Shown here: one piece after another, positions 1 to 35,477 of the stretch
Layout: each line of letters opens with the position of its first letter
Numbering within the stretch: position 1 is the first letter of the stretch
Virus record (IMG/VR): IMGVR_UViG_3300031867_000276
Location: 1-35,477 of that record
DNA length: 35,477 bases
Source of the DNA: a virus
Direction: 5' to 3' (one strand)
Program-made: the position numbers and the translations under genes
The notes under the pieces: model-generated
The model's input: the letters and a program-made list of their open reading frames with translations, nothing else
Told to the model about the DNA's origin: nothing
Database searches by the model: none

Positions 1-127
1 AATAAAGTATTTATTGGTTACTGCCGACCACAGGGAACTATATTTCGACCATTGGTTGGATATGATTTCGGCAATGGCAACAATGATTGATAAAGGCGAG
101 ACGGTCTGTGTCAAAAAACTGGATGAA
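1..127. repeat. Terminal direct repeat, copy 1 (identical to 35351..35477)
   Basis: Read directly: 127/127 identical to the last 127 bases of the window. Confidence 0.95.
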
Positions 128-1263: not shown

Positions 1264-1510
1264 CAAACCAACTATGACGAATGAACAGCGGAAAACCCTG
1301 CAGCGGTATGAAAAGCACCTCCACAGCGCTTTTTATGCCGACTACGTTGTAGGACTACCAGCAAATGACGTTCGTGTCTTATTCGGCGTTTTCAACAAAA
1401 TTTACTCCACCACCGAAACAAACTACAGTTGCAATTTCTGTGTGTTGAGAGTGTTGAAAGGCTTGGCGAGACTGTATTACAAATCTGACAGCAATAAAAA
1501 GACGAAATGA
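1256..1510 (+). CDS. Hypothetical protein
   Basis: 84-aa ORF, overlapping and coupled with both neighbours. Confidence 0.55.
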   Translation: MDNKPTMTNEQRKTLQRYEKHLHSAFYADYVVGLPANDVRVLFGVFNKIYSTTETNYSCNFCVLRVLKGLARLYYKSDSNKKTK

Positions 1511-2304
1511 AAGAAAAGAAATCAATCATACAACAGGCTGTTATATTGCCAATTTCCGCACTGGAAACCAACACCGGACAGATTGAGGGATTGCCAAAGA
1601 ACCCACGACTGATAAAGGGCGAGAAGTTCAAGAAACTCAAAAAGAGTATCGAGGACAATCCCGAAATGCTTGCGTTGCGAGAACTGCTCGTTTATCCTAT
1701 AGGGGGGGGCAAATATATTATTATAGGGGGCAATATGCGATACACGGCAATGTCTGAATTAGGATATAAAGATGCGCCGTGTAAAGTCATTGACGAGAGT
1801 GCCACCGTTGAACAACTACAGGCATACACCATCAAAGACAACAGCGGATTTGGCGAGTGGGATATGGACTTACTCGCCAATGAATGGGATGTCGTTTTGC
1901 TTTCCGAGTGGGGTGTTGATTTGCCAACGGTCAGTGAAACCGAGAAACTATCACTACTCGATTATACAGGTGTGTACTATGAACCGCTGAAAGTACCTGA
2001 CATTAAACTGATGGACTGCGTAAACCTCGACAAATTCAATGCCAAACTACAGGCGTTGAAAGAGTACAATTTGACTGATGAACAACGAGAAACGCTGAAA
2101 TGGTTTGCATACCGATTCATAAAGATAGATTTTGAGAGTGTTGCGAATTACTATGCTTTCAATGCCACTGACGAGGAAAAGAAAGCCATTGAACGGCTGC
2201 GGTTGGTATTGACTGACAATGGCGTAAATGGTTTTATTCAGGACGATTTGTTGAGGGTTGCAGAGCGGGTTATGTTTGACGATGATAAGGAGAGCGAAGA
2301 ATGA
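1507..2304 (+). CDS. ParB-like nuclease domain protein
   Basis: The N-terminal pattern NPRLIKGEKFKKLKKSIEDNPEMLALRELLVYP...IIIGGNMRYTA resembles the ParB/Srx N-terminal domain (GxxR box). Contains a G8 tract at 1702-1709. Confidence 0.6.
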   Translation: MKEKKSIIQQAVILPISALETNTGQIEGLPKNPRLIKGEKFKKLKKSIEDNPEMLALRELLVYPIGGGKYIIIGGNMRYTAMSELGYKDAPCKVIDESATVEQLQAYTIKDNSGFGEWDMDLLANEWDVVLLSEWGVDLPTVSETEKLSLLDYTGVYYEPLKVPDIKLMDCVNLDKFNAKLQALKEYNLTDEQRETLKWFAYRFIKIDFESVANYYAFNATDEEKKAIERLRLVLTDNGVNGFIQDDLLRVAERVMFDDDKESEE

Positions 2305-3236
2305 AAGACGACATACACATACTAATCCCATCGTACCACAGACCGAAAAACAACAAGACGGTCAAATACTTTGTCAAAATGGGATGGCAACCCGACAAAC
2401 TGCACGTATTCATTGACAGCGAAGCAGACGACAAAGCGGACTATGACTTTGAATGTGCGAAGCAGGGTGTACAACTCCACGTCTTTGATATGAATGAAGC
2501 ACGCAAGCGGTATGACTATATCCACCGACCTACACCTGCAAGACGTGCCGCAGGTCAAGCACGCAATATGTTTCAGGACTGGGCAAAAGAGAACGGCATT
2601 GATTTTTACTGTGTCATTGACGATGATACGCAAGGCTATGGAATCAAGTTCCCAAAGCACAGTGAAACGAGAGCGACCATTGACGACATCCGGGATGTGT
2701 TCTTTTACATCGAGGAATTTATGAGACGACAACACATTGGTTTGTTCGGACTGATGCAAAGTGGAGATGCGATTGGTGGAGCGAAACCACGATTGTACAT
2801 TCCCAAAGTAATGAATACAACATTTTACCTGCTACCGTATGTGTACAGGGGCGAAAGAGGTGTGCAGGATGATGATACGAGTATGTTCGTGGGCGTGATG
2901 AACGAGGGGTATTTTACAGGCAGTACAGGTTGCGGTCTTATGCTGCATCAAACACCGAGTGCAAAGGCAACAGGCGGACTTACTGACTTATACAACGAAT
3001 GCAAGTTGCTGAATAAATCACTCGTGACACCAATACAGTTTCCATCCGCTATCTTTGCCGAAAAGCAGGTCAAGAATGGCGGACGGTTACACCATCACAT
3101 TTGCAACAAATACTTATTCCCACGAGTGTTGAAAGTCAAAGCAACAGACCGCAGCAATATGGCGTGGGATTCATTCCCTGAAGATATACCATTCACAAAC
3201 GAACCGAATAGATTATGGCAACGAGAAAATCAATAA
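2301..3236 (+). CDS. Putative GT-A-type glycosyltransferase-like protein
   Basis: HILIPSYHRP at the N-terminus and the DxD-like CVIDDDT. The call is by motif only. Confidence 0.4.
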   Translation: MKDDIHILIPSYHRPKNNKTVKYFVKMGWQPDKLHVFIDSEADDKADYDFECAKQGVQLHVFDMNEARKRYDYIHRPTPARRAAGQARNMFQDWAKENGIDFYCVIDDDTQGYGIKFPKHSETRATIDDIRDVFFYIEEFMRRQHIGLFGLMQSGDAIGGAKPRLYIPKVMNTTFYLLPYVYRGERGVQDDDTSMFVGVMNEGYFTGSTGCGLMLHQTPSAKATGGLTDLYNECKLLNKSLVTPIQFPSAIFAEKQVKNGGRLHHHICNKYLFPRVLKVKATDRSNMAWDSFPEDIPFTNEPNRLWQRENQ

Positions 3237-3559
3237 CAAAGCAGAAAAAGGAAGCGATGATTGATGCACTGCGCCGTAGTGCAGGAAACATCACTGTCGC
3301 CTGTAAGAATGTAGGTGTGTCACGTGATACACATTACAGATGGTTGCACGATGACGACTGGTACAATGACGAGTGTTCAAAGGTTGATGAGGAAACAGGC
3401 GATATGGTTGAGGGCGAATTGATGAAACACATTCGCAATGGCAACCTTACGGCAATCATATTCTACTGCAAAACCAAACTGAAAGACAGGGGATATGTTG
3501 AAAAGAACGAAATGGATTTGGGCGGAGATATGACAATTAATGTGACCGACTTTGAATGA
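3215..3559 (+). CDS. terS: Terminase small subunit (HTH type)
   Basis: ITVACKNVGVSRDTHYRWL HTH and a C-terminal AIIFYCKTKLKDRGY pattern. Lies directly upstream of TerL. Confidence 0.7.
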   Translation: MATRKSITKQKKEAMIDALRRSAGNITVACKNVGVSRDTHYRWLHDDDWYNDECSKVDEETGDMVEGELMKHIRNGNLTAIIFYCKTKLKDRGYVEKNEMDLGGDMTINVTDFE

Positions 3560-4815
3560 GACGACAGCGGACTATAACTGTAAACCTGTATAAACCCAAA
3601 GACTATCAGTTGGCGGTGCATCGTGGACTGTCCGAACACTGGGCGGATTCATTCCACTTTGTAAAGGCTGTGCGCCAGTGCGGAAAGTCGATGATGGCTG
3701 AAAACATCCTGATTAAAGCGTCACTGACACACCCGAACCAAACATCCGTACTGATTGCACCGACATTCAAACAGGCACGCAAGATTCTCAAATCTATTGT
3801 CCGCAAGTTCAGACGTACACCCCTGTATGCGGGAAGTAACAGCAGCGACCTCGAATTTACATTCTCCAATGGCAGTATCATTGTGTTTCTGTCTGCCGAA
3901 CAGGGCGACAATATACGTGGTCAGACGGTGTCGCAATATGGTGTGTTGGTAATTGATGAAGCAGCGTATATCAGCGATGAAGTCTTTTACACCGCAACAC
4001 CTTTCGTCAATGCAAACCACGCACCCATTGTCGCAGTCAGTACACCGAGATTCAAACAGGGTTTCTTCTATGATTTCTACGCTGATGGGTTGCAGGGCAA
4101 AGCAAACATCTACGCATACGATTTCACGGACTACGACAATCCATTTCTGACACCTGAAAAGTTGGAAATGTACCGCAACAAAATGCCGTTGAATCTATTC
4201 CGAGCAGACTACCTCGGACAATGGATGGAAACAACGTCTGATGTGTTCGGAGATTTCAAAAAGGTACTGTCAAACACTGTGTCAATGACCGGGCAATATA
4301 CAGCCGGTATCGACTGGGGTGTTGGTAAGAACGCAAAGAGTAACGACAGCGACAGCACCTCTTTGTCGATATTCAACAATCTACATCAACAGGTCGGTAT
4401 ATTCCATTGGAACGATCTCGATGAAACAACGACCATTGCACGAATAGTTGAGACGCTGAAACAGTTTAATGTCCGCAAGGTTGTAGTGGAAACAAACAGC
4501 ATCGGCAGTGTGTATCTGGGATTGTTGCGAAGGGCAATCCAACAGGCAGGGTTGCTTTGTCAGGTTGTTGAATTTGCGACCACCAACGACAGCAAACGTG
4601 AAGCAATAGAATACTTTATCGTACAGGTGCAAAACCGCACAATTCAACTGCTTGACGACAACGAGCAGTCAATACAGATGTCCGCTTTCAGGATGGAGAA
4701 AACACCTACAGGCAAAGTAACCTACAACGGCACACCCGGCTATCACGACGACTGTATAATGGCAACCGCTATGGCACTACACGGATTGAAAATTGGAACG
4801 TATAACATACTTTAA
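3556..4815 (+). CDS. terL: Terminase large subunit
   Basis: Walker A-like VRQCGKS, Walker B VLVIDEAAY, and a C-terminal nuclease-type HDDCIMA. Confidence 0.9.
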   Translation: MRRQRTITVNLYKPKDYQLAVHRGLSEHWADSFHFVKAVRQCGKSMMAENILIKASLTHPNQTSVLIAPTFKQARKILKSIVRKFRRTPLYAGSNSSDLEFTFSNGSIIVFLSAEQGDNIRGQTVSQYGVLVIDEAAYISDEVFYTATPFVNANHAPIVAVSTPRFKQGFFYDFYADGLQGKANIYAYDFTDYDNPFLTPEKLEMYRNKMPLNLFRADYLGQWMETTSDVFGDFKKVLSNTVSMTGQYTAGIDWGVGKNAKSNDSDSTSLSIFNNLHQQVGIFHWNDLDETTTIARIVETLKQFNVRKVVVETNSIGSVYLGLLRRAIQQAGLLCQVVEFATTNDSKREAIEYFIVQVQNRTIQLLDDNEQSIQMSAFRMEKTPTGKVTYNGTPGYHDDCIMATAMALHGLKIGTYNIL

Positions 4816-5612: not shown

Positions 5613-7685
5613 ATGGCACAAACCGAAGTCGAAATACTTAATATAGACACCTCGCAAAGCGTTCGCTCAATTGCAGACCTGAAAGCAGAGATCAAAGCAC
5701 TGAAAGACCAACTCGTTACACTGGAAGCAGGAACGGAAGAGTACAACGAAGTACTGGTTAAGGTTGCAAACAAGCAGCACGAATTGGTTGAAATTACCGA
5801 ACAGGTCAAACAATCCAGTCAGGATTTTGGCGACCGTATGGCAAATGTTGCAGGTGCGATTGGCGGTGTGAGTGGTGCAGTGCAGACAGTGACAGGTGCA
5901 TTGTCTTTGATGGGCGTGGAAATTGGCGATGATGCCAAACTGATGAAAACGCTTGTATCTGCAATGTCAATCACATCGGGCATTACTGCCATTGATAAAG
6001 GTATGAAAGCGGTTAAGGCTCTGACTGTATCGTTAAAAGCATCTACCGCAGCGGCAGGCGGACTCGGAAAGGCTCTGAAAGCACTTGCAATGTCAAATCC
6101 ATTTACAGCGATACTGGCAGGTGTTGTCGCTGTTACCGCTGCGGTTGTCGCTTTAACCAAAGCCATAGGAAACGCACGTGAAGCACAAGCGAGGTTGCAA
6201 CAGGCTTCCGACAACAAACAGATGTTGGATGCGTACAACGAGTTGGAAACAAAACTCAATACGCAGGTCGAAATGATGAAGATTGACGGGCAAACCGATT
6301 ATCAAGTGTTTCTACAAAAGAAAGCCAATGCAAAAGCACTGCGTGACCAAGCGGAACAGAACCTCAATCATTATCTTAAAATTATTCAAACAGGCTCACG
6401 TGCAGAGAGAAAAGCAGCCGAAGAATTTTATCAGATATGGAGTGAAGCATACGACAAAAGGGCAGCGGACTATCAGGCATTGATAGACCAAACAGCCATC
6501 GAAGAACACCGAGAAGAAAAGCGCAGGGAAGCAGAACAGGAAGCAGCAAGACGAGCCCGACAGCAAAGGGCGCAAGCAGCGGCATCGGCAGCAGCGGCAC
6601 AAAAGAAAGCGGAACTCGCACAGATAGCAAAGATTGAGCGTGATGCGCAAATTGCTTTGATGGATGCAGAGGACGCAGAACTGGCGAAACTCAAAGACAC
6701 CTACGATGAGCAGGTCAGATTGTACCAAAAGCGAGGACAGGATATTTCCACACTTACAGCAAAGTATGAAAAGGAACGTCAGGCGATAATCGACAAGTAT
6801 ATTGCTGAACGTGTGCAGAAAGACATTGAAGCAGCCGAGAAAGAAGAAGAAAGAGCAGCGAATAAGTCTGCGGCATTGGTCAGACTATTGGAAAAACAGA
6901 TGGCAGACGAACAAGCCATTTATGACCGGATGCAGATTGAAACCGACAACCTACTGGCAAAGGATTACACCGAAGAAAAGGTCGAGGAAGCGGAAGCAAT
7001 GATGGAATCCGCTTATATGGCATTGCTACAACATAGAATTGAACTCGAACAGCAACTGTTACAGAGTGAAGCACTGACAGACGAGGACAGAGAAGAGTTG
7101 CAGGATTCCTTACTACAGCATCAAAAGGAACGTGCCGAATTGAGTGTGCAGATTGAACAGAAAGCATTGGAAAAACGCAAAGCACTGTATCAGAATTACG
7201 CAAAGGCAGTCAATTCGATTACGTCTTCTATAACATCAATCCTCGGCACTATTGGCGGCACACTCGAAGAGGGTAGCAAACAATGGAAAGCGGTAAAGAT
7301 TGCGGAAGCAACCATTTCAACCATTCAGGGCGGTGTCGCTGCATATATGGGTATGGTTGAAAGCATACCGGGTCCGGCAGGTTTGATTGCAGGTGCGGTT
7401 GCAGCAGCGGCAACGGTGGCGGCAGGTATGGCGGAAGTGGCAAAGATACGCAACACTGAAATATCTACTGGCGGTAGCAGTGGAACAGCATCCACTACAA
7501 CGGCACTCGGAAGCGTCAAACCTACAGCGGTACGGGTTGCAGCAACACAGGTCACAAACACCCGACAAACATCTACAACATCCGACATCGAGGAATTGCC
7601 CGATACAAAGGTGTACGTGTTGGAATCCGATATTACCAACGCACAAAGGAATGTAAAAACAACTGTCGAACAGGCAACATTTTAA
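5613..7685 (+). CDS. Tape-measure-like protein (long coiled coil with Gly/Ala-rich hydrophobic segments)
   Basis: 690 aa with extended heptad-like E/K/A/Q-rich regions and GAIGGVSGAVQTVTGAL / IAGAVAAAATVAAGMAEV segments. Preceded by the chaperone-like pair. An internal ejection protein is an alternative. Confidence 0.55.
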   Translation: MAQTEVEILNIDTSQSVRSIADLKAEIKALKDQLVTLEAGTEEYNEVLVKVANKQHELVEITEQVKQSSQDFGDRMANVAGAIGGVSGAVQTVTGALSLMGVEIGDDAKLMKTLVSAMSITSGITAIDKGMKAVKALTVSLKASTAAAGGLGKALKALAMSNPFTAILAGVVAVTAAVVALTKAIGNAREAQARLQQASDNKQMLDAYNELETKLNTQVEMMKIDGQTDYQVFLQKKANAKALRDQAEQNLNHYLKIIQTGSRAERKAAEEFYQIWSEAYDKRAADYQALIDQTAIEEHREEKRREAEQEAARRARQQRAQAAASAAAAQKKAELAQIAKIERDAQIALMDAEDAELAKLKDTYDEQVRLYQKRGQDISTLTAKYEKERQAIIDKYIAERVQKDIEAAEKEEERAANKSAALVRLLEKQMADEQAIYDRMQIETDNLLAKDYTEEKVEEAEAMMESAYMALLQHRIELEQQLLQSEALTDEDREELQDSLLQHQKERAELSVQIEQKALEKRKALYQNYAKAVNSITSSITSILGTIGGTLEEGSKQWKAVKIAEATISTIQGGVAAYMGMVESIPGPAGLIAGAVAAAATVAAGMAEVAKIRNTEISTGGSSGTASTTTALGSVKPTAVRVAATQVTNTRQTSTTSDIEELPDTKVYVLESDITNAQRNVKTTVEQATF

Positions 7686-9590: not shown

Positions 9591-10412
9591 ATGCCGAATT
9601 ACTACCATATAAAGGTTCGCAGAGATACCGCAGCAAATTGGGCGGCTAACAATCCGACCCCTGCTTATGGCGAAATCTGTCAGGAAACAGACACCAAACG
9701 TAAAAAGATTGGCGATGGTGCTACTGCGTACAACTCATTACCATACGACCAACCGGGCAACGCTACCACATCCTCGGCAGGTCTTATGTCTGCAGCGGAC
9801 AAACAAAAGTTGGACGGTATTGATATGTCGCAATATGCGAAACTCAACTCTCCGCTTTTCACAGGCACACCAACAGCACCGACCAAAAGCGGTTACGATG
9901 TCAGTAAACAACTTGCGACAGATGCCTACGTGCTGCATCAAATAGCAGCGGCATCGGCATCGGTAATGGTGCGTTGCATCTTTTCATTGTCTGCGAATAC
10001 TGTTCAGAATATCATTAACAACATTTCCGAATGTGTCTTTATGGCTGTCAATGGGAAAGCGGTTGCAATAGAGAAGTCACAAAAACTCGTTGCAGGAATC
10101 AACTATGTTGATTTTGTTTTCAATACTGGTTCGCAGATTGCCTGTAGCAAGATTCCCGACGATGCCTTTGGCGGCATTTCCAATCTGACCGCTGCGGTAT
10201 TGCCTGAAAGAATAATCGAGGTTGGCATTAAAGCCTTTAGTGGCTGTCCGGAAATGAATATGGTGTATTCGCTGTCGCCATTCGCAAAGATAGATGGCAC
10301 AACGTTTCAGGGGACAAACTTACTAAAAGCATACGTACACAAAGCATTTGCCACGTACTATCAGGCGGATGCGGAATGGACTGCTTTAAATTGTCAATTT
10401 ATAACATTCTAA
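9591..10412 (+). CDS. Tail fibre protein with C-terminal leucine-rich-repeat-like domain
   Basis: The N-terminal VRRDTAANWAANNPTPAYGEICQETDTKRKKIGDGATAYNSLPY resembles the Mtd/HylP-type N-terminal fibre domain. GLMSAADKQKLDGI and SPLFTGTPTAPT are fibre motifs. The C-terminus shows a BspA-like LRR pattern. Confidence 0.7.
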   Translation: MPNYYHIKVRRDTAANWAANNPTPAYGEICQETDTKRKKIGDGATAYNSLPYDQPGNATTSSAGLMSAADKQKLDGIDMSQYAKLNSPLFTGTPTAPTKSGYDVSKQLATDAYVLHQIAAASASVMVRCIFSLSANTVQNIINNISECVFMAVNGKAVAIEKSQKLVAGINYVDFVFNTGSQIACSKIPDDAFGGISNLTAAVLPERIIEVGIKAFSGCPEMNMVYSLSPFAKIDGTTFQGTNLLKAYVHKAFATYYQADAEWTALNCQFITF

Positions 10413-10719: not shown

Positions 10720-10956
10720 ATGAGTTTGATTGTTGGAATACTCAATGCGATAGGACGCAAACGCAACAGTGGAGGCAGTGGCGGTGGTTTTGTGCCTGAC
10801 GATGACAACTACCTGACCACTGAAAGCAGCCGACCAATATTGACAGAGGGCGGCGACTATCTGTTGTGGGAAGCGGCAACAATCCTACTGTCTGAAGATG
10901 GTTTTGGACTACTGACTGAAAATTATAATCAATTAATTTGCGAACAATATGAGTAA
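10720..10956 (+). CDS. Hypothetical protein
   Basis: 78-aa co-directional ORF. Confidence 0.5.
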   Translation: MSLIVGILNAIGRKRNSGGSGGGFVPDDDNYLTTESSRPILTEGGDYLLWEAATILLSEDGFGLLTENYNQLICEQYE

Positions 10957-12550
10957 AAAGAAAATTTCCGAACTCCCTGTGTTTAATGGCAATGCAGCGG
11001 AGTATGTCATTGTCGGTTACGATACTACCGATATGACAACAAAGAAATGTAATTTTGCCACGCTGATTGCCAACAGTGGCGACCCACGTATCAAACCATT
11101 GACAGCCGAGAATCTTGAAGTTGGCGATATGCTGTTCTTTGACCGTGCCGAAGAAAAATACTGCATTGTTAAGAAAGCAGCCATCGCAGCAGTTTTGGCA
11201 GACTACAACCAAACTCGCTACGAAACCAACTACGACACCTACATTGGCACATTCAATGGTGTTGCACACTTTGTCGCTTTGGACGATGCAGTTGCAAGCA
11301 ACGCACTCTACAGCGATGATGTTGCTGCGACATCCTGTTTCTATCGTATCGAGATAGACAACACGCAGGCTGGCAGTATTACCCTGTCGGCAACAAGTGG
11401 CAATGCCAGTGTCGCAGAAACGACCATCACTTGGGGTGCAGGCGACACGATGTCAAGCATTGTCGCACAGTTCACGGCACTCAATACCACGTACATAACC
11501 TTTGCTGCACTTGACGACCAAAGCGGTGTAGGACTGGAGATTGGCGGTTATGGCAATAACACCCTCACGACATCGGGATTGTCAAACTGCACCGTCATTG
11601 ACTGTTCAGGACTGGCAATGCTGTCGAGCCATAACAGTACCGCTGTTGTGGGCGGCACTTATGTACCCGGCAACGCCTATACCTTTATCGGTCAAGGTGT
11701 ACACCATAATTTCAGAGGTGCTTCCGCAAACTCCATCCTCGGTGCAACCGTCAAGGCTCCGAATACAGTCTGTATTGCCAATGATGGTTTCAACTACAGT
11801 TACCGAGTCGGAATCAACTTTGCCAAATTCAAATCGTGGGCATCCGTCAGTGGCGATGATACATACTATGATGATGGCGAGGGCGGTCAGGATGATTCTG
11901 TAGGTCACGTGATGCGTGAATCGAGATTTAACACCGAGGTACGTGACTACACAGGCAGCGATGCACACCACCTCGGAATGAAAGACTACTATACACACCT
12001 GTTGAATGACCAGTCGGGCGAATATGCCGAACTGCGTGAAGAGTTTATTTCTCGCTATGGCAATATGACCTCGATGTATGACGGTTATTTGATGGCACAC
12101 TGTATGGATGTGGCTGCCGCCAGTGGCACAACCAATGACCTGCGCAATTATGGTATGACGCAGACAGCAGCGAAAGCAGACTGCCTGAACGTCAATTACA
12201 ATTACAAGTTCATTCCTGCATATCCGCCTGAATACAACGCACAGCATTATGGCGTGACTTCCGAGGGATTTGTGCCGGGTAAATACTACCATCCCGAACC
12301 GGGTGACATTGGTTTGATGTTCCGTGACGACATTATGCCTGTCATTAATGACAATATAACAGAAGTCAGAGCGGCATTGCTACAGAACGTTGGCACACCT
12401 CTTACAAACTCACTGTACAGAGGTTCGTGCGCTGACTGCGGCGGCGGCAGCTCGTGGTTCTTCGACGGCAGCGGCGGCTGTTTCAGCAGCGACGGCCGCT
12501 ACGGCGGTTACTTCCGCTGTCGTCCTGTCCTCGCTTTAAGCCTTTCATAA
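10949..12550 (+). CDS. DGR target protein 1: tail-fibre / receptor-binding-like protein with C-terminal variable (C-type-lectin/DUF1566-like) region
   Basis: The last ~40 aa (CADCGGGSSWFFDGSGGCFSSDGRYGGYFRCRPVL) are encoded by VR1. Lies in the tail-fibre neighbourhood, directly upstream of avd-TR-RT. Confidence 0.85.
   Translation: MSKKKISELPVFNGNAAEYVIVGYDTTDMTTKKCNFATLIANSGDPRIKPLTAENLEVGDMLFFDRAEEKYCIVKKAAIAAVLADYNQTRYETNYDTYIGTFNGVAHFVALDDAVASNALYSDDVAATSCFYRIEIDNTQAGSITLSATSGNASVAETTITWGAGDTMSSIVAQFTALNTTYITFAALDDQSGVGLEIGGYGNNTLTTSGLSNCTVIDCSGLAMLSSHNSTAVVGGTYVPGNAYTFIGQGVHHNFRGASANSILGATVKAPNTVCIANDGFNYSYRVGINFAKFKSWASVSGDDTYYDDGEGGQDDSVGHVMRESRFNTEVRDYTGSDAHHLGMKDYYTHLLNDQSGEYAELREEFISRYGNMTSMYDGYLMAHCMDVAAASGTTNDLRNYGMTQTAAKADCLNVNYNYKFIPAYPPEYNAQHYGVTSEGFVPGKYYHPEPGDIGLMFRDDIMPVINDNITEVRAALLQNVGTPLTNSLYRGSCADCGGGSSWFFDGSGGCFSSDGRYGGYFRCRPVLALSLS
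12417..12534 (+). repeat. DGR variable repeat VR1
   Basis: Gap-free 118-nt alignment to TR. There are 19 internal mismatches (17 A>G, 2 A>T), all at TR adenines. The terminal 23 nt are identical. Confidence 0.9.
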
Positions 12551-12569
12551 GTTTGAATGTTTAATCTTT

Positions 12570-12597
12570 GCCGCTCCATCCCGTAGGGTGGGGCGGC
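12570..12597 (+). other. GC-rich hairpin downstream of VR1 (candidate DGR target-recognition structure or terminator)
   Basis: gccgctccatccc / gggtggggcggc forms a 12-bp stem with one bulge and one G-U pair and a 3-nt loop. It lies about 35 nt after the VR1 end. Confidence 0.55.
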
Positions 12598-12620
12598 ATT
12601 GAAACAAACAATGAATCATT

Positions 12621-13064
12621 ATGCCGAGAAAACGTCCGAAATCACTCGATGCACCTGTGGTTATGATTGCCCGAAGACTTGAAGCGTGGGCGTATCTGCG
12701 TTGCGACCAGTGGAAAAAGCAATACAGATATACCCTCGTGAATGATTTTCGCAGTCATATCACAGCGGCAAAGAATGAAATCATACGTGGTTTTGAATTG
12801 CACAACAGATTCAAAGACGAAAAACTATACCATTACAACCTCGCACAAACCGAATTGGCATTGACCGAGAGTTGTATGGATATAATGATAATGGACGAAT
12901 TCTGCATAATGAGTGAAAAGGAATGGGCGCAGGCTGCAATGCAGATTGATGAAATAAGAATGGGATTGTCGAGGCTCGCTAACTCGCTAACTAAAGGCGT
13001 TGGTGGGTCGGAATCTTCGAACTGCGGAACGGAGAGCGTGTCTGCCAATTATAAGGATGTCTAA
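12621..13064 (+). CDS. avd: DGR accessory variability determinant (Avd-like)
   Basis: 147-aa basic, predicted helical protein in the canonical position between the target gene and TR. The pattern resembles four-helix-bundle Avd proteins. Confidence 0.7.
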   Translation: MPRKRPKSLDAPVVMIARRLEAWAYLRCDQWKKQYRYTLVNDFRSHITAAKNEIIRGFELHNRFKDEKLYHYNLAQTELALTESCMDIMIMDEFCIMSEKEWAQAAMQIDEIRMGLSRLANSLTKGVGGSESSNCGTESVSANYKDV

Positions 13065-13078
13065 CTATTCAGGTAAAT

Positions 13079-14485
13079 ATGGATAGTCAAATCAACATAG
13101 ACAAGCAAAGAGGTTCGTGCGCTGACTACAACGGCAACAACTCGTGGTACTTCAACGGCAACAACGGCTGTTTCAACAACAACAACCGCTACAACGGTAA
13201 CTTCCGCTGTCGTCCTGTCCTCGACTATGGCTGGTATGACAATGCGAAACTCGACACATATCCCATCACACTTGCAGACTGGTACATTATCAGTCGTGAA
13301 ACTGCAAAGGGCAAAGCGAACAAACCCTGCTACGTGTTCTTTATCCTGAATCGGATAAACGAGTTGGTACAACTTGCACACGAGGTTGGAAATTTTGAGG
13401 TTATGCCGACCGAAAGCACTGCACATATTATCTTTGAACCGAGAGTGCGAGAGATTGTATGTGCTGTTGCATCGAAACGAGTGTTGCAAACTTACTACAT
13501 CCGCAGTCTGCAACCATACCTCGAAAGCGTTCTGTACCATCCTGACAGTTACAGTTGCAGACGTGGCAAAGGCGGTCTGCGTGCCGTGATGCAGTTGCAG
13601 GATTATATCTTTGAGCAGTCAAACGGCTATACTTCCGATTTGTGGCTTGCGAAAGTGGATATACAGGCGTTCTTTATGTCGCTCAACTGCTTTCAGGTGT
13701 GCGAGGTCGTAACAAACTTCATCAACCGCAGAATGTCAGACCATCCACAGCGAGAGTTGCTTGTCTATCTGACACGCATAATCTATCTTGCAGCAACAAA
13801 AGACCATTTGAGGGATATGGCGCACCCTGCGGAACGAGTGTTGCTCGACCCTACCAAATCGCTTTACAACCGTCCGCACTATACAGGTGTACCCATTGGC
13901 GATTGGACGAGCCAAACGGCAGGATTAATCATTACTACGTTTCCGCTGCGGTATCTTGAATCTTTGGGATATAAGTTTATCCATTACACGGACGATACTG
14001 TTGTACTGGTCAGGGATAAGCGGCAATGGCTCGAAGATGTTGAACGACTTGCGAGATACTACAAAGAAAATTTTGGTTTGACACTGCACCCGAAGAAACG
14101 CTATCTGCAACACTACAGCAAGGGCGTTGAATGTTTGGGGTACAAAGTCAGATTTAACCGCATACTTCCGAGCAACAGAATCTATCATAATTTGACGTGG
14201 TATTTGGAGCGTACTATCCGCAAGGCTGAATCCCAACCGAGTTTTGCCATCAGTCACGCCGAGCAGATACAATCAACATTGAACAGTTACCTCGGTTTCC
14301 TGCGTTGGTGCAACGGTTACAGGCTCCGTGAAAAGGTCTGTAAAATGGTTTCTGATTCAGTACTCGGAACGGTGTTGAAACCATCCGAGGACTGTAAGAA
14401 AATAACCATCCGCAGGGAATACACAAAGAAAACATACTATCGAAACGAATATAAAACACTGAAACAACAATTAAAAGCAGCATAA
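13079..14485 (+). CDS. DGR reverse transcriptase (annotated ORF includes TR at its 5' end)
   Basis: PIGDWTSQ (the I/LGxxxSQ DGR-RT signature), YTDD catalytic motif and VDIQAFFMSL. The true start is uncertain because no in-frame ATG lies between TR and the conserved N-terminal RT region. Confidence 0.9.
   Translation: MDSQINIDKQRGSCADYNGNNSWYFNGNNGCFNNNNRYNGNFRCRPVLDYGWYDNAKLDTYPITLADWYIISRETAKGKANKPCYVFFILNRINELVQLAHEVGNFEVMPTESTAHIIFEPRVREIVCAVASKRVLQTYYIRSLQPYLESVLYHPDSYSCRRGKGGLRAVMQLQDYIFEQSNGYTSDLWLAKVDIQAFFMSLNCFQVCEVVTNFINRRMSDHPQRELLVYLTRIIYLAATKDHLRDMAHPAERVLLDPTKSLYNRPHYTGVPIGDWTSQTAGLIITTFPLRYLESLGYKFIHYTDDTVVLVRDKRQWLEDVERLARYYKENFGLTLHPKKRYLQHYSKGVECLGYKVRFNRILPSNRIYHNLTWYLERTIRKAESQPSFAISHAEQIQSTLNSYLGFLRWCNGYRLREKVCKMVSDSVLGTVLKPSEDCKKITIRREYTKKTYYRNEYKTLKQQLKAA
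13107..13224 (+). repeat. DGR template repeat (TR)
   Basis: Adenine-rich master copy with 12 AAC and 3 TAC codons and 28 adenines between 13121 and 13200. It matches VR1, VR2 and VR3 at all non-adenine positions. Confidence 0.9.
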
Positions 14486-14799: not shown

Positions 14800-15201
14800 A
14801 TGCTATTTCTTGACGACACATTACCCATTATCCTGACCGAGAACGGTGACGATATTACCACAGAGCGTAAAAATGACCTCTGCGGCGATAACGTCACCGA
14901 CTTGGTGGAAATGGTCATACCAACAAAAAGAACGGCACAGGCGGAAAATTTGACAATTTTAACTGTCAATGACACCACCGGAGCGCAGTTTGAATTTGTG
15001 TCGCAGTCTGCATCCATCAAACCGTATAAAGTGACTGCGATTTTCAACTTTAACGTTGATATGCCGTGCGGACAATACCATTTCATCCTGTCAGACATTG
15101 ACGGGGAACTGCAGCGAGGATTGATGCAGGTTGGTATGAGAACGGCAGACGTGCAGCAATACAAACCCGAAATCAAAACGGTAAGTTATGAACGAAGATA
15201 A
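14800..15201 (+). CDS. Hypothetical protein
   Basis: 133-aa co-directional ORF. Confidence 0.55.
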   Translation: MLFLDDTLPIILTENGDDITTERKNDLCGDNVTDLVEMVIPTKRTAQAENLTILTVNDTTGAQFEFVSQSASIKPYKVTAIFNFNVDMPCGQYHFILSDIDGELQRGLMQVGMRTADVQQYKPEIKTVSYERR

Positions 15202-16258
15202 TATCAAAGTACTGACATTGCAGATGAGGGAAGCGAATATCCCTATTCCAAAGGAAACCGAGGACAAATCCAAAGGGTTTGTCACGTTTGGAGAGGGCAA
15301 CAATTATCCTGCTTTTCTCTACGACTGCTACAGCGAGTGTAGCATCCTGCAATCCATCATAAACGGTCTGATAGACTATGTTTGCGGCAATGGATTCACT
15401 GACGAGAATTTGTCGCAGAAGCAAATCAACAAAAAGGGCGAAACCTTTATTGATTTGGTAAAAAAGGCAGTTGCGGACTACGCCATATTCGGTGCTTTCG
15501 CATTGCAGATTATCCGAAACAAGAACGGCAAGATACTTGAATTGTATTGGATTGATGCAAGGCGTGTAAGACTGAATGAGGACGAAACATTAGTCTATTA
15601 CCGCAAGGATTGGACAAAGAACAGGGAAACGAAAAAATATGACCGCTGGCAGCGTGATTATAAGTTTGACAACTGCATATACTACTACAAACGCCCTGCG
15701 TCACGTGGGGTGTATGGTCTGCCGATGTGGTCAAGTGTGGTTAAGGATGTGACAACGGCGATCGAGATTTCAAAATTTCACTTGTCGTCAATCCTGAATA
15801 ATTTTGCAGCATCCGCCATTATCAACTTCAATAATGGTGTGCCAACAAAAGAGGAACAGAAAGATATCGAACGGAGAATCAACGAAAAGTTTTCAGGCTC
15901 TACAAATGCCGCCCGAATGATGCTTGTTTTCAACAACAACAAAGAACAGGCGGTAACCGCTGAAAGACTGTCAGAAGATAACTTCGACCAAAAATATCAG
16001 GCGTTGTCAAAGAGTGTGAAAGAAAACATCTTTGTCGCTTTCAGAGCGCAACCGCAACTGTTTGGCACCGACCCCGACCGCACTGGTTTCAACTCGCAGG
16101 AATATCAGGAAAGTTTCAAACTGTTCAAAAAGACAGTCATCGCACCCATACAAAGCGAGATTGAATCTGCTTTTGCACGAATCGACCCTGCATTTTCATT
16201 CAAACTGAAAGAGTTTGAAATTGATTTCGACCCGATACAAACACATCCGACAATATGA
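15188..16258 (+). CDS. Portal protein
   Basis: 356 aa. The YGLPMWSSV ... FSGSTNAARMMLVF ... FRAQPQLFG pattern is typical of PBSX-type portal proteins. Confidence 0.75.
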   Translation: MNEDNIKVLTLQMREANIPIPKETEDKSKGFVTFGEGNNYPAFLYDCYSECSILQSIINGLIDYVCGNGFTDENLSQKQINKKGETFIDLVKKAVADYAIFGAFALQIIRNKNGKILELYWIDARRVRLNEDETLVYYRKDWTKNRETKKYDRWQRDYKFDNCIYYYKRPASRGVYGLPMWSSVVKDVTTAIEISKFHLSSILNNFAASAIINFNNGVPTKEEQKDIERRINEKFSGSTNAARMMLVFNNNKEQAVTAERLSEDNFDQKYQALSKSVKENIFVAFRAQPQLFGTDPDRTGFNSQEYQESFKLFKKTVIAPIQSEIESAFARIDPAFSFKLKEFEIDFDPIQTHPTI

Positions 16259-23898: not shown

Positions 23899-24123
23899 AT
23901 GGGATGGATTAAAGAATCAAACCGTTGGAAACATCTTTTGGGCGGAATCGTACTTGGTACATTCCTGACATTCTTTTGCGCTCTCGGCTGCGGTGGGGGT
24001 ATGGAGTTTAAAGATAAGCAATGGGGCGGCAAATGGGATTGGCTCGACTTTCTCGCTACCTGTTTGGGCGGCATTATCGGGCAGGATATTCAGTTATTAA
24101 TCATTTATATTATTGTCAAATGA
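23899..24123 (+). CDS. Holin-like small membrane protein
   Basis: 74 aa with two hydrophobic segments. ATGA-coupled to the endolysin gene. Confidence 0.5.
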   Translation: MGWIKESNRWKHLLGGIVLGTFLTFFCALGCGGGMEFKDKQWGGKWDWLDFLATCLGGIIGQDIQLLIIYIIVK

Positions 24124-24554
24124 CACAAAAAGGAATCAATCTAATAAAGCAATTCGAGGGTTTGTGCCTGAAAGCGTACAAATGCCCGGCAGGTGTATGG
24201 ACTATCGGTTACGGACATACACAGGGAGTTAAAGAGGGCGACACAATAACCGAGAGGGAAGCGGAAAACCTGTTGCGAAAGGATGTCTGCAACTTTGAGT
24301 GCAATGTGCGTTGCTCCGTCATTGCCAATCTTAACGACTACCAGTATGATGCGCTGACCTCGTTGGCGTACAATATTGGTTTGGGTGCGTTCCGCAAATC
24401 TACATTGCTACGCATTATCAACAATGGCAATGCCACCGAAGAAGAAATCCGCAAGCAGTTCGACAGATGGGTTTATGGTGGCGGCAAGCAACTGCCCGGA
24501 TTGGTACGCAGACGACACGCAGAAGCAGACCTTTATTTCACTCCATATTGTTGA
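24120..24554 (+). CDS. Endolysin, GH24 (T4/lambda-type) lysozyme
   Basis: MTQKGINLIKQFEGLCLKAYKCPAGVWTIGYGHT, the classic FEG...AY...G..TIGYGH motif. The ORF track start 24021 is trimmed to ATG 24120. Confidence 0.85.
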   Translation: MTQKGINLIKQFEGLCLKAYKCPAGVWTIGYGHTQGVKEGDTITEREAENLLRKDVCNFECNVRCSVIANLNDYQYDALTSLAYNIGLGAFRKSTLLRIINNGNATEEEIRKQFDRWVYGGGKQLPGLVRRRHAEADLYFTPYC

Positions 24555-24990: not shown

Positions 24991-25199
24991 GCGGTTTCGG
25001 TCACAAATCGGTCACATATTTCGCAATCGTCTGAATTACAATTCTAATTGTACCCCCTGGGGGAGTGTTTCGATTGTCACTTTTTGAGTACTTTTCGGCA
25101 CAAAACAAATCATTTCAGAGTGTTGTGCGCTGATGAACGGCTTATGGTTAGTTGTAGGCGATGCAAATTCTGTCATATTGATACAAATATTCGGTCACA
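24991..25199. other. Candidate attP region
   Basis: Only sizeable non-coding gap next to int. It has three TCGGTCACA direct repeats (24997, 25008, 25191), the inverted repeat tacaatt-ct-aattgta (25037-25052) and ccccc-t-ggggg (25053-25063). Confidence 0.4.
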
Positions 25200-26439
25200 T
25201 TTCGGACACACTGTCTGCAAAGGTGTCGAACATTGACATTTTCTTTTTCTTTACATCGTCAGCAATGGCGATGTATGGTTTTAGTGTCTTATGGTCTTTG
25301 TGACCAGTCCAACGCATAACGACCTCTGACGCTATATCCAGTGAAAGAGCCGTCACAACGAATGTCTTGCGTCCGCAATGGGATGTAAAAACCTGCCATT
25401 TCGGTACTGATTCCTCGTGGCGTTCAGAACGCACCCACCAAACACGGCGTACAGGCTCGTCAATCTTTGCCATCCTGCCGAGTTCTTTCAGATAGATGTT
25501 TGTTTTCTGATTGCTGACAACAGGCAATGCCGGGCAATCTGCATCATTGCCGCAGTTGTACTTTTCAAGTATGGCTGCGGTTACTTTGTTTAATTCAATG
25601 TTGATGGCGGCAGATGTCTTTTTCGTAACCACACGAAAATGTTCTTTGTGGATGTCCGACCGCCGCAGTTTGGCAACGTCAGAATACCGCAGACCGCTAA
25701 AGCAGCAAAACAGGAATATGTCACGCACCCTGTCAAGGTGTGGCAATGCCGACAAATCCAGTTCCATAATGCGATGCAGTTCGTCACGGGTAAGATAGAC
25801 AACCTCGTTTTCTGATTCAGACCGATAGCGAGTATAGAATCCTGTTGCGTCAGTCTGCTCGCACAACCCTCGTTCAATGGCTGTCCGCAAAGTCCATCGC
25901 AGTTGTTTCAGAAACTTTTGTACTGTGGCGTTGATAAGTCCACGTTCAAAGCAGAAATCCATAAATGCCTGTATATCGGCTTTCGTAAAGTCTGCGAGTG
26001 TCTGATATGGTCGCCAGTCTGATATGCGGTTACGCAGTGTAATATAATTGCGACGTGTGTTGTAACTCCAACCATCCCCGAGGGTGCTATCTTTCAAAAA
26101 CAAGTCCATTACGCCCACGAGCAGCAAAGATTCTTTTGCCTGTTCTTTGGTGTGGATGTCTCCGAGTGCAGATTTGACCTCGGCAGGGGTAACGATGCGA
26201 TGTTCAAGATGTGCAGCATCAAAGAGCCTGTCGATTGCTGCGGTCTTTTCCTGTATTTCTTTCATCGCCCTGCGATGGGTGCGGAGTGGCAACCCAGTAC
26301 GAGAATCCCACTCGCTATCTTTTGCCGAGGTGTCGAGATAGTGAGTGACACATTGACCGTTCCACGATACACGCATCCTGATTGCCTTTGTACCGTCCGT
26401 GTGTGGTCTGTTGAGGGTGTAACGGACGCTGTATTTCAT
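25195..26439 (-). CDS. int: Tyrosine recombinase / phage integrase
   Basis: 414 aa with LRYSDVAKLR, HCGRKTF and WTGHKDHKTLKPY (R..H.R..H..Y catalytic pattern) and an N-terminal SAM-like domain. Confidence 0.9.
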   Translation of the reverse strand: MKYSVRYTLNRPHTDGTKAIRMRVSWNGQCVTHYLDTSAKDSEWDSRTGLPLRTHRRAMKEIQEKTAAIDRLFDAAHLEHRIVTPAEVKSALGDIHTKEQAKESLLLVGVMDLFLKDSTLGDGWSYNTRRNYITLRNRISDWRPYQTLADFTKADIQAFMDFCFERGLINATVQKFLKQLRWTLRTAIERGLCEQTDATGFYTRYRSESENEVVYLTRDELHRIMELDLSALPHLDRVRDIFLFCCFSGLRYSDVAKLRRSDIHKEHFRVVTKKTSAAINIELNKVTAAILEKYNCGNDADCPALPVVSNQKTNIYLKELGRMAKIDEPVRRVWWVRSERHEESVPKWQVFTSHCGRKTFVVTALSLDIASEVVMRWTGHKDHKTLKPYIAIADDVKKKKMSMFDTFADSVSEM

Positions 26440-26847: not shown

Positions 26848-27216
26848 TTATCCGACATCTTTTTTCTCGACAGCCTGCGGCTGTTGGTAACTGTCAAGGA
26901 TGCGAACGAGCCTGTCAATCGTTGCATCCTTTTTCTTCGATTCCAACTCCAGTTCCGCAATCCGTTCTTTGAGTTGTGCGACCTCTGTATTGGAGTTTGC
27001 CGAAAGCATAGTACCCTCGCCAGTAACAAGCCACGAGCGACTGACTTCCGGGAATACAGACAGGATGGTTTCGATTACTGCTTTCCCTACATTTTCATTT
27101 CCACACAAACCACTCGTGTATGTGTGTGATTTTCCGAGCATATCTGCGAACTTTTTGTTGTTGTTTTCGCAAAAATACGCCCGAATTTCTGAAATTCTTT
27201 GGTTGATTTCTGCCAT
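26848..27216 (-). CDS. CI-like repressor (HTH)
   Basis: FADMLGKSHTYTSGLCG ... SRSWLVTGEGTM matches the phage CI repressor HTH pattern (WL.TGEG.M). It has a coiled-coil C-terminus and faces the early operon divergently. Confidence 0.75.
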   Translation of the reverse strand: MAEINQRISEIRAYFCENNNKKFADMLGKSHTYTSGLCGNENVGKAVIETILSVFPEVSRSWLVTGEGTMLSANSNTEVAQLKERIAELELESKKKDATIDRLVRILDSYQQPQAVEKKDVG

Positions 27217-27991: not shown

Positions 27992-28435
27992 ATGAACGAA
28001 AATCAAATCAACAACGAGCCTGTAAGCGTCCACAGAGACGAGAACGGCAACCCTGATGGGGTATTGGTGCAGACACTTGACGAACGCTTTGTAATCGAGT
28101 TGCACGACATTGACGATGGTAAAGACGATTTCAGTTTTGACACCGCACAAGAGCGACTGAAAGAACTCGGTAAAACCACATTCAACAAAAAGCAGGGTTT
28201 GATACTGGCTGCATACATCGAGGAAATCAACACAGCGCTTGTCGAAGCAGGTGGCGAACCCTTTGCCAAAGACTTGTACACATCCGGGGAACTGTACAAA
28301 CCTGTTGGGTGCGCTGACTACTACGGCAACGCCTCGTGGTGCTTCCACGGCGCCGGCGGCTGTTTCGACTACGACGACCGCTACGACGGTGACTTCCGCT
28401 GTCGTCCTGTCCTCGCTTTGCCTTTACAAAGTTAA
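27992..28435 (+). CDS. DGR target protein 2: small (147 aa) variable protein, paralog of 31726..32166
   Basis: The C-terminal CADYYGNASWCFHGAGGCFDYDDRYDGDFRCRPVL is encoded by VR2. No signal peptide or TM segment is visible. Confidence 0.85.
   Translation: MNENQINNEPVSVHRDENGNPDGVLVQTLDERFVIELHDIDDGKDDFSFDTAQERLKELGKTTFNKKQGLILAAYIEEINTALVEAGGEPFAKDLYTSGELYKPVGCADYYGNASWCFHGAGGCFDYDDRYDGDFRCRPVLALPLQS
28309..28416 (+). repeat. DGR variable repeat VR2
   Basis: Gap-free 108-nt alignment to TR 13117-13224. There are 15 mismatches (10 A>G, 3 A>C, 2 A>T), all at TR adenines. Confidence 0.9.
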
Positions 28436-28448
28436 ATAGTTAAACGTT

Positions 28449-28472
28449 GCAGCCTGCTTTCGGGCAGGCTGC
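28449..28472 (+). other. GC-rich hairpin downstream of VR2
   Basis: gcagcctgc / gcaggctgc forms a perfect 9-bp stem with a 6-nt loop, about 32 nt after the VR2 end. Confidence 0.6.
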
Positions 28473-28489
28473 ATTAAAACAAATCAGCA

Positions 28490-31725: not shown

Positions 31726-32166
31726 ATGAACAACAATAATCAGGATGCAGTAATCAGCATCATAACAGATAACAACAACCATAAATGGGTTAGGGTTGAA
31801 GCATTGGGCGAAGACTTCTGCATTGCCACAGAGGACTTGAATAGCCGAGACGATATGACCTATGATGAAGCGATGAAAGAGTTGAAAGAAGTTGGATTGG
31901 ACACTTTCAACCGCAAGCAAGGATTCATCATTGCCATCTACATTGAGACAATCAATGCCAAATTAAAAGAAGCAGGCGGAAAGGAATTTGAGCGTGACTG
32001 GTATACAAGTAATGAATTGTGGAAGCCTGTCGGGTGCGCTGACTACAGCGACGGCTACTACTCGTGGTTCTTCTACGGCGGCAGCGGCTGTTTCAACTAC
32101 GACGCCCGCTGCGGCGGTTACTTCCGCTGTCGTCCTGTCCTCGCTTACGCCTCCTTAAAGTTTTAA
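31726..32166 (+). CDS. DGR target protein 3: small (146 aa) variable protein, paralog of 27992..28435
   Basis: Shares TFN(K/R)KQG.I.A.YIE.IN..L.EAGG..F....YTS.EL.KPVGCADY with target 2. The C-terminus is encoded by VR3. Confidence 0.85.
   Translation: MNNNNQDAVISIITDNNNHKWVRVEALGEDFCIATEDLNSRDDMTYDEAMKELKEVGLDTFNRKQGFIIAIYIETINAKLKEAGGKEFERDWYTSNELWKPVGCADYSDGYYSWFFYGGSGCFNYDARCGGYFRCRPVLAYASLKF
32034..32144 (+). repeat. DGR variable repeat VR3 (one codon longer than TR)
   Basis: 111 nt versus 108 nt of TR 13117-13224. There are 16 substitutions, all at TR adenines, plus a 3-nt in-frame insertion in the tac-aac-ggc-aac-aac segment. Confidence 0.85.
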
Positions 32167-32183: not shown

Positions 32184-32402
32184 ATGGCAACAGGTCAAAT
32201 CAGCAACAAACAAAAGGTGGTCCGGGTGTATTGCTCGGACTGCCGCTGGTTTGTCCGTGACACCGAGGGAAACAGTTTTAAGTCAGGCACAAATCCGAGA
32301 TACTATTTTATGGGCGAATGTTCAAAGGGGTTGCACCCTGATACTATCATAAAGCAGTTCGCCGACAAACCAAGAATCTGTCAAACCTATAGTGAGAAAT
32401 GA
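32184..32402 (+). CDS. Small Cys-containing protein
   Basis: ORF 32064..32402 trimmed to ATG 32184 (MATGQISNKQK...), because the upstream part overlaps VR3 out of frame. Confidence 0.5.
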   Translation: MATGQISNKQKVVRVYCSDCRWFVRDTEGNSFKSGTNPRYYFMGECSKGLHPDTIIKQFADKPRICQTYSEK

Positions 32403-35346: not shown

Positions 35347-35477
35347 AAACAATAAAGTATTTATTGGTTACTGCCGACCACAGGGAACTATATTTCGACC
35401 ATTGGTTGGATATGATTTCGGCAATGGCAACAATGATTGATAAAGGCGAGACGGTCTGTGTCAAAAAACTGGATGAA
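35343..35477 (+). CDS. Hypothetical small protein spanning the circular junction (3' end continues at 128..157; total about 53 aa, MKTIKYLLVTADHRELYF...)
   Basis: The ATG at 35343 overlaps the TGA of the preceding gene (ATGA). The frame stays open through the repeat and stops at TGA 155-157 of the duplicated start. It is absent from the ORF track because it is split by the window edge. Confidence 0.5.
   Translation, partial: MKTIKYLLVTADHRELYFDHWLDMISAMATMIDKGETVCVKKLDE
35351..35477. repeat. Terminal direct repeat, copy 2 (identical to 1..127)
   Basis: Read directly. Either an assembly overlap of a circular molecule or a short terminal redundancy. Confidence 0.95.

Follow-up and report, generated by a model that had tools for sequence, protein, structure and literature searches.

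Evidence for a recently active diversity-generating retroelement with one template repeat and three target genes in a temperate tailed phage genome

The viral record IMGVR_UViG_3300031867_000276 of IMG/VR (positions 1 to 35,477; this whole stretch of 35,477 nt is referred to as the window) was found to carry, at 10949-14485, a target gene (T1), an avd-like gene and a reverse transcriptase (RT) gene on one strand. Together with repeats located elsewhere in the window, these genes form what appears to be a diversity-generating retroelement (DGR), a system in which a template repeat (TR) is copied into variable repeats (VRs) of target genes. A preliminary description made from the letters alone had proposed a complete DGR at this site. 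All coordinates are window positions, and L001, L005, L007, L008, L010, L012, L013 and similar names are labels of compared loci. The open reading frames (ORFs) and other features of the element are as follows.

10949..12550, + strand: target gene T1, 533 aa, carrying VR1 at its 3' end
12417-12534, + strand: variable repeat VR1 (core 12419-12533), at the 3' end of T1
12570..12597, + strand: G+C-rich hairpin, 35 nt 3' of VR1
12621..13064, + strand: avd-like accessory gene, 147 aa, assigned from sub-threshold Avd matches and synteny
13079..14485, + strand: RT ORF, 468 aa, with matches to RVT_1, phrog_1423 and a PDB entry
13107-13224, + strand: TR (core 13109-13223), in frame inside the RT ORF
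13201..13223, + strand: A-free, G+C-rich 23-nt segment CTTCCGCTGTCGTCCTGTCCTCG, common to TR and all VRs, similar to an initiation of mutagenic homing (IMH) site
13892..13915, + strand: RT motif PIGDWTSQ (the I/LGxxxSQ signature of DGR RTs), aligning to IPIGSLTSQ of Brt
13985..13996, + strand: RT catalytic motif YTDD, aligning to YMDD of Brt
27992..28435, + strand: target gene T2, 147 aa, isoelectric point (pI) 4.4, carrying VR2, in the early region downstream of a repressor-like gene
28309-28415, + strand: variable repeat VR2, at the 3' end of T2
28448..28473, + strand: G+C-rich hairpin, 32 nt 3' of VR2
31726..32166, + strand: target gene T3, 146 aa, pI 4.7, a T2 paralogue carrying VR3, between RecE/YqaJ-like exonuclease and RepO-like genes
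32034-32143, + strand: variable repeat VR3, at the 3' end of T3, with a 3-nt insertion relative to TR

A mechanical repeat search returned a four-copy family at 12419-12533, 13109-13223, 28301-28415 and 32029-32143, and the cores 12419-12533 and 13109-13223 were strictly identical at non-A positions. TR and VR1 aligned over 118 nt without gaps and with 21 mismatches, comprising 17 A>G and 2 A>T internally and 2 A>C at the edges (TR positions 13108 and 13224). Changes were present at 21 of the 33 TR adenines and at none of the 85 non-A positions, a distribution with P = 3.7e-15 if mismatches were randomly placed. This recount agrees in full with the preliminary description, which had reported the gapless 118-nt alignment, the 19 internal and two edge differences, and their restriction to adenines of TR. 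It had named VR1 as a target site; VR1 stands, and two further repeats with the same adenine-only mismatches, VR2 and VR3, lie outside the coordinates that it gave. In VR2 all 16 mismatches fell on TR adenines and 0/78 non-A positions were changed (chance P 2e-11). In VR3, counted over VR positions 32048-32144, 3' of the insertion, the corresponding values were 18/18 and 0/69 (chance P 8e-13). Summed over VR1 to VR3, 55/55 mismatches were on adenines of the TR copy, and VR2 and VR3 lie 15 and 19 kb from TR, respectively.

The insertion in VR3 (32048-32050) is one extra codon relative to TR, placed after GACTACA (TAC AGC GAC GGC compared to TAC AAC GGC), which the relative L013 does not have. 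The extra codon may have arisen by RT slippage and then become fixed in this genome.

The four copies might in principle be ordinary paralogous C-terminal repeats that arose by point mutation or gene conversion, with no reverse transcription involved. In agreement with that explanation, T1, T2 and T3 have in common a homologous C-terminal module of approximately 70 residues, which reaches approximately 30 residues upstream of the VR (hhalign 99.3%). However, ordinary divergence cannot restrict 55 of 55 mismatches to the adenines of one copy, nor can it hold that copy invariant during turnover of the others, and it is the invariant copy on which a DGR-type RT sits. The adenine-only pattern therefore effectively refutes the explanation by paralogous repeats, and we give it almost no credence.

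The VR is C-terminal in T1, T2 and T3. Read in the frame of the VRs, TR contains 12 AAC and 3 TAC codons, which corresponds to 15^12 x 4^3 = 8.3e15 peptides; both the codon count and the arithmetic of the preliminary description (about 8e15) were right. The A-free segment at 13201-13223, which that description had noted as the identical last 23 nt of TR and VR1, was found to be identical in every copy. The bases directly after it were CT in 10/10 distinct VRs and AC in TRs. The 90-nt segment 3' of VR1, hairpin included, folds at -33.3 kcal/mol, and this hairpin could act in target recognition, in termination, or in both. Target recognition in the Bordetella phage BPP-1 follows an IMH/IMH* and hairpin logic, and the A-free segment, the CT/AC switch and the hairpins of the window resemble that arrangement. 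Inside the A-free segment, the locus L001 (L001:2049, window 13219) has a C>T change in TR that is not in its VR1, unlike the copied marker at 13168 described below. This pattern fits either a complementary DNA (cDNA) junction within the A-free segment or a recent mutation.

Activity of the element was assessed by comparing VRs and TR across public, near-identical assembled genomes. The differences from the window were distributed as follows.

L001 (IMG/VR), 99.3% identity to the window: VR1, 12/13 differences at TR-A positions
L007, approximately 98% identity: VR1, 12/12 differences at TR-A positions
L008, approximately 98% identity: VR1, 18/18 differences at TR-A positions
L010, 97.6% identity: VR1, 20/21 differences at TR-A positions
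L012: VR2, 18/19 differences at TR-A positions
L013: VR2, 18/18 differences at TR-A positions
L013, 97.9% identity (VR3 segment): VR3, 18/19 differences at TR-A positions, the 19th being an indel

L001 and the window had 68 differences over 9,806 nt, 13 of them inside the 118-nt VR1 and one in TR. TR was without differences in L007 and L008, and had 0-1 differences across the relatives whose VRs differ at 12-21 positions. Substitutions were 6-19 times as dense in the VRs as elsewhere in each alignment (p 1e-6 to 4e-14). Among the 10 distinct VRs, 27/27 core adenine positions varied (A 112, G 85, T 53, C 20), and only 4/700 non-A cells differed. Two of these four cells are explained by JAZOQL010000035.1 (L012), in which a C>T change of TR at the equivalent of window position 13168 recurs in its own VR1 (12478) and VR2 (28360); the sole non-A difference of the L012 VR2 is this C>T, matching the TR of the same genome. 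Since a TR change is found in both VR1 and VR2 of one genome, sequence information must have moved from TR to two targets. A near-fixed TR, variable VRs and a copied TR marker are what unidirectional transfer from TR to VR predicts. At the protein level, residues 1-107 of T2 homologues were near-identical, with differences mainly at VR-encoded positions, and a T3 homologue behaved likewise. A search for further IMG/VR relatives with an exact 22-nt pattern found L001 alone.

The preliminary description had stated that a lack of heterogeneity at A positions would speak against the element. Near-identical genomes were instead found to differ in their VRs almost solely at TR-A positions, with TR approximately invariant. 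We conclude from these assembled sequences that the DGR appears to have been very recently active on all three targets. The cassette could also be a fossil, with a TR/VR pattern left by past activity and no diversification now. The evidence for activity is drawn from assemblies, and eroded TRs in the RT cluster representatives P0032, P0036 and P0054 show that decay occurs within the clade. In this lineage, however, the RT ORF is uninterrupted and retains the catalytic motifs, TR retains 32 adenines (13107-13223), genomes that are 0.7-2.4% divergent carry VRs differing at 12-21 TR-adenine positions, and one relative has two VRs with a point mutation copied from TR. A fossil cassette is thus very improbable.

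The product of the ORF at 13079..14485 matched RVT_1 in Pfam (5.7e-14) and the phage RT family phrog_1423 in PHROG (4.9e-40). The best PDB match was 8ub7_A, a 328-aa reverse transcriptase (E=4.7e-7), which we take to be Brt of the Bordetella phage BPP-1; residue 72 of the query pairs with residue 22 of that protein. RTs from Bacteroides and Bordetella phages that carry DGRs were 24-32% identical to it. The preliminary description had called this ORF a reverse transcriptase with PIGDWTSQ and YTDD and had named missing catalytic residues as a reason to doubt the element; the profile matches and the motif alignment to Brt agree with the assignment, and YTDD is present in line with YMDD of Brt. 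As judged from its sequence, the protein belongs with the DGR RTs.

TR had been placed between avd and the RT gene. This placement did not hold, because TR lies within the RT ORF and in frame with it. The ORF starts at the ATG at 13079, 28 nt 5' of TR, and TR makes up codons 10-48 in the same frame as the VRs (RGSCADYNGNNSWYFNGNNGCFNNNNRYNGNFRCRPVL), with the RT core starting at approximately residue 51. No in-frame ATG, GTG or TTG was found between 13079 and the residues that align to the N-terminus of Brt. An Asn-rich, TR-type N-terminus was present in 115 of the 120 RT cluster representatives that were the best homologues (35-99% identity), mostly with approximately 123 residues (120-136) before DSYSCR. 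In five loci with RT identities of 39-58%, TR lay within the first approximately 60 RT codons, and an A-only VR ended the upstream target gene. Because there is no alternative in-frame start before the RT N-terminus and the layout is clade-wide, TR is taken to be translated as RT residues 10-48. It is likely that RT proteins of this clade carry an N-terminal extension encoded by TR, and that the template RNA is the RT mRNA itself.

A less likely arrangement is a genuine DGR with an untranslated TR, in which RT starts at an unconventional codon 3' of TR and the long ORF is a by-product of a stop-free TR. TR is open in the VR frame anyway, so that an in-frame junction has a chance of 1 in 3; in Bacteroides phage F2, TR is in a separate 81-aa ORF, in another frame than RT; and in P0044 the frame shifts at the junction, with a start in the other frame. 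These points are set against the lack of in-frame ATG, GTG and TTG codons described above, the retention of an upstream ATG, an in-frame TR and near-constant spacing in 115/120 representatives down to 35% identity, and the same layout in 5/5 distant loci. We consider an untranslated TR unlikely.

Some members of the clade depart from the common layout. P0032, P0036 and P0054 have a TR-like N-terminus inside the RT ORF in which many Asn (AAC) codons are already replaced, and at L020:4031-4161 the VR mismatches an eroded TR-like segment at non-A positions. The TR-like segments of L020, P0032, P0036 and P0054 look like products of template erosion or of self-homing into TR. In P0044 (431 aa), TR is read in a different frame over its 3' part (MATSGAVLPSTMAD...) before the RT frame is reached, which points to an indel of 1 nt where TR joins RT and to another start within TR.

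Taken together, these findings point to a complete DGR, in which one TR serves three targets by adenine-specific mutagenic homing, in a temperate tailed phage, and we put the probability of this interpretation at roughly 0.93. The completeness, the order target-avd-TR-RT and the adenine-specific homing claimed in the preliminary description are borne out by the A-only pattern in three VRs, an RT near Brt and the turnover of the VRs. In the proposed mechanism, the template RNA would be a transcript running from the 3' end of avd through TR into the 5' part of the RT gene. RT and the Avd-like protein would copy TR into cDNA with misincorporation opposite template adenines, and the cDNA would replace the homologous 3' segment of T1, T2 or T3. 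The A-free segment would mark the 3' junction, beyond which a VR has its own CT... and TR has AC.... The 12 AAC and 3 TAC codons would be recoded in each target (about 8e15 peptides each), and TR would be left unchanged. Templating by RNA, self-priming, the part played by Avd and the use of the 3' junction and hairpin for target recognition are assumed here by analogy with BPP-1.

Several results weigh against this interpretation. The Avd-like protein gave matches that were all below curated cut-offs: NF033474 DivGenRetAVD at E=0.001, phrog_3206 ('Avd protein of DGR') at E=1.8e-4 and, in Pfam, PF05635 at E=0.007 and PF22296 (bAvd) at E=0.067. Similarity between its family profile and BPP-1-type Avd was negligible (1.7% probability), and no solved structure was found to match it, with either the single sequence or the family profile. 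A search of the whole window against Rfam gave no match at gathering thresholds, and relaxed thresholds around TR gave chance snoRNA matches only, so that no motif of the RT-10 type reported for BPP-1 can be recognised. RNAalifold predicted zero pairs in the 200 nt 3' of TR across six loci, because the sequences are too divergent and coding. No hairpin was found 3' of VR3, and those after VR1 and VR2 may therefore serve as terminators instead of belonging to the DGR. Translation from the ATG at 13079 is inferred. For T1, PDB fold matches were local (approximately 100 residues, E approximately 0.01) and involved the decoration domains found in flagellins and phage tail sheaths, with no C-type lectin entry among them. 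The best BFVD fold match of T1 was weak, a Siphoviridae protein with a DUF1566 domain (E=5e-4), with a second DUF1566 phage protein lower in the list, and Pfam did not detect DUF1566 in T1 or the T2 family. The model of T2 had a predicted local distance difference test score (pLDDT) of 68 overall and <50 across the VR, and its fold search was without a significant match.

As to the avd-like gene itself, Avd ranked top or near-top among the matches in three libraries, all below cut-off, and 6/18 members of the family matched PF05635 and PF22296. The family profile aligned to bAvd of Bacteroides phage F2 over its full length (hhalign, 59.6% probability, E=8.9e-5, 116 columns), and an Avd-like gene lies between target and RT also in five distant relatives. 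An Avd profile search of 12621..13064, as suggested in the preliminary description, did recover Avd families, with every match below cut-off. The ORF and its position at the site expected for Avd were correctly described there; its description as basic was not, since the protein has 21 K+R and 20 D+E residues and a pI of 7.7. We accept the 147-aa protein as an Avd-like accessory protein on the strength of its position and weak homology.

The stop codon of T1 lies 13 nt after the end of VR1. No family match was found for T1 in Pfam, NCBIfam or PHROG, tail-fibre families included. The AlphaFold2 (AF2) model, built from a 76-sequence alignment, had a pLDDT of 93.3, with the VR forming the last C-terminal beta strands. 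Some T1 homologues carry BspA-type leucine-rich repeat (LRR) or CBM_5_12 modules. The gene lies in the structural module, downstream of a tail-fibre-like gene at 9591-10412 and three ORFs apart from it. The 273-aa product of that gene has an Mtd N-terminal domain (PF18454, 6e-13) and BspA-type LRR, and is not a DGR target. A gene-fusion link between T1 and this fibre by way of 724-aa homologues was rejected, as they share the LRR_5 family match alone and have no sequence similarity to the gene at 9591-10412.

The preliminary description had called T1 a tail-fibre target. The diversified 533-aa ORF was confirmed, and the tail-fibre label follows from gene position, with no family match. T1 is likely a virion receptor-binding or adhesin protein. 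It is possible, with the odds against it, that T1 is not a tail fibre and is another exposed virion or cell-surface adhesin, such as a decoration or tentaclin-like protein. T1 matches no tail-fibre family, and Mtd_N is found in a separate gene; the local fold matches are to tail-sheath and flagellin decoration domains, and homologues have BspA-type LRR or CBM_5_12. On the other side, the gene follows directly after the tail-fibre-like gene in the structural module, and phage DGR targets are mostly tail proteins (PMC8144416).

T2 and T3, in contrast to the structural-module context of T1, are encoded among lysogeny-switch, recombination and replication genes. No N-terminal hydrophobic segment or signal peptide was found in T2 or T3. 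Most of their homologues (130-234 aa) have no signal peptide, and one has a transmembrane N-terminus. Neither T2 and T3 against PHROGs and NCBIfam, nor the T2 family against Pfam, nor the T2-family profile against PDB sequences gave a match. In JAZOQL010000035.1 (L012:9852-10070), T3 is absent, its place after the YqaJ-like exonuclease gene being taken by a 72-aa ORF. The RT protein of this genome is 99% identical to that of the window, with approximately 97.6% nucleotide identity, so the number of small targets varies between very close genomes.

We infer that T2 and T3 are expressed with the early genes and act within the cell as small binding proteins. A further, combined proposal is that T2 and T3 are hypervariable intracellular binders, which would for example neutralise variable host defence or superinfection factors, and that the TR-RT fusion is functional; that both parts hold is doubtful. 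On the second part, one may speculate that an RT with a TR-encoded 40-residue extension would have a cis-preference for its own mRNA or would couple translation to templating, the alternative being mere compaction.

The first 127 nt of the window (1-127) are 100% identical to the last 127 nt (35351-35477), and the genome is therefore circular, with a length of 35,350 bp. It is the complete genome of an uncultivated temperate tailed phage. Genes assigned by PHROG/Pfam, and the cassette for orientation, are as follows.

3556-4815: large terminase
5613-7685: tape-measure-like protein
9591-10412: tail-fibre-like protein, Mtd_N and BspA-type LRR
10949-14485: T1, avd and RT cassette
15188-16258: portal
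24021-24554: endolysin
25195-26439, - strand: integrase
26848-27216, - strand: repressor-like protein
30738-31715: RecE/YqaJ-like exonuclease
32399-33277: RepO-like protein, with perfect 45-nt tandem repeats inside

The repeats in the RepO-like gene (32661-32811) are a perfect 45-nt tandem repeat in 3.4 copies, with 22/23-nt sub-repeats, and look like origin iterons. The ENA contig ERZ27256863:k141_4588197 (L005) is the same genome; otherwise identical, it has 90 nt (two repeat units) fewer in this gene. Products resembling a ParB nuclease, a TAGT glucosyltransferase (phrog_842, weak PF20691) and a nucleoside 2-deoxyribosyltransferase (DUF4406) are encoded by three neighbouring genes in the regions 1507-3236 and 34963-35346, which may represent a DNA-modification module. 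No tRNA genes were found, and scans for promoters and terminators around the cassette were uninformative. In a distant DGR-bearing relative, an IS605 OrfB/TnpB (Cas12f-like) gene lies on the opposite strand in a phage-like region (L017:1405-2568).

GenBank phages gave no nucleotide match to the window and no protein match to T1 or T2. An assignment of the host from GTDB was rejected as unreliable, as the two matches were whole-phage contigs binned in metagenome-assembled genomes of Rikenellaceae and Eggerthellaceae. One distant RT homologue is labelled Bacteroidales. Shine-Dalgarno-like motifs were not enriched upstream of genes (6/36 compared to a background of 12.5%), which fits a Bacteroidota host and is no proof of one.

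DGRs are common in gut phages, so that the cassette alone leaves the picture unchanged, and the DGR itself will be no surprise to a specialist. Less usual are the position of TR inside the RT gene and the two small targets encoded among early genes. The activity can be read from public assemblies, with one template, three targets and a non-adenine TR marker in two VRs. If T2 and T3 do act inside the cell, phages would be using targeted hypermutation in a new way, extended from adsorption to intracellular conflict, and the two proteins would provide compact binding scaffolds that can be diversified. The in-frame joining of TR to RT, found across the clade, would be a test case for whether DGR RTs prefer the mRNA that encodes them.

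Several non-adjacent VRs served by one TR within one prophage have been documented (PMC5758913, Wu et al. 2018), and gut phages with two 'tentaclin' targets have been described (PMC10743442). The element in the window is like these multi-target phage DGRs (PMC5758913, PMC10743442) in having one TR and several VRs in one phage genome. Its extra targets differ from theirs in being approximately 147 aa, acidic, and without a signal peptide, Ig domains or a structural-module context. The smallest known DGR targets consist of the variable domain alone (PMC5758913, PMC10743442).

The overlap of TR with an annotated RT ORF defines 'group 3' in the DiGReF survey (PMC3521204), and the TR of the window overlaps the RT ORF in the same way. 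As group 3 is already catalogued there, the TR-in-RT layout is not new. The definition given there (PMC3521204) is at the level of annotation, whereas in the window TR in its entirety forms an in-frame 5' portion of the RT ORF, a layout conserved in 115/120 RT clusters.

The nearest RTs from isolated phages are those of the Bacteroides uniformis phages F2, F4 and Bacuni_F1 (PMC8143477), with 28-30% identity over 77% of the protein. These phages have the same cassette order, with an annotated bAvd, and the Avd family of the window aligns over its full length to that of F2. In contrast, F2 has its TR (L019 3264-3371) in a small ORF of its own, whose frame differs from that of RT. This ORF, an 81-aa 'hypothetical protein' between bAvd and RT (MT806186.1, L019:3163-3408), is likely to be an artefact that arises because the TR frame has no stops.

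With the Mtd/Avd/TR/Brt cassette of BPP-1, the element shares the order target-avd-TR-RT on one strand, a VR at the extreme 3' end of the target ORF, adenine-only mismatches, an A-free G+C-rich 3' junction in TR and VR, and the IGxxxSQ and YxDD motifs. It differs in an RT identity of approximately 24%, in having three targets compared to one, and in a TR that is in frame inside the RT ORF, whereas the BPP-1-type record has TR approximately 145 nt upstream of the annotated RT start. Furthermore, T1 is not an Mtd homologue, Mtd_N is in an undiversified neighbour gene, Avd similarity is negligible, and the hairpin, 32-35 nt after the VR here, is absent at VR3. Of the BPP-1 architecture proposed in the preliminary description, the gene order and the A-only homing pattern are retained; a TR inside the RT ORF and three targets do not conform to it. 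These comparisons indicate that the element works like that of BPP-1 but is not a close member of the Mtd-Avd-TR-Brt cassette type.

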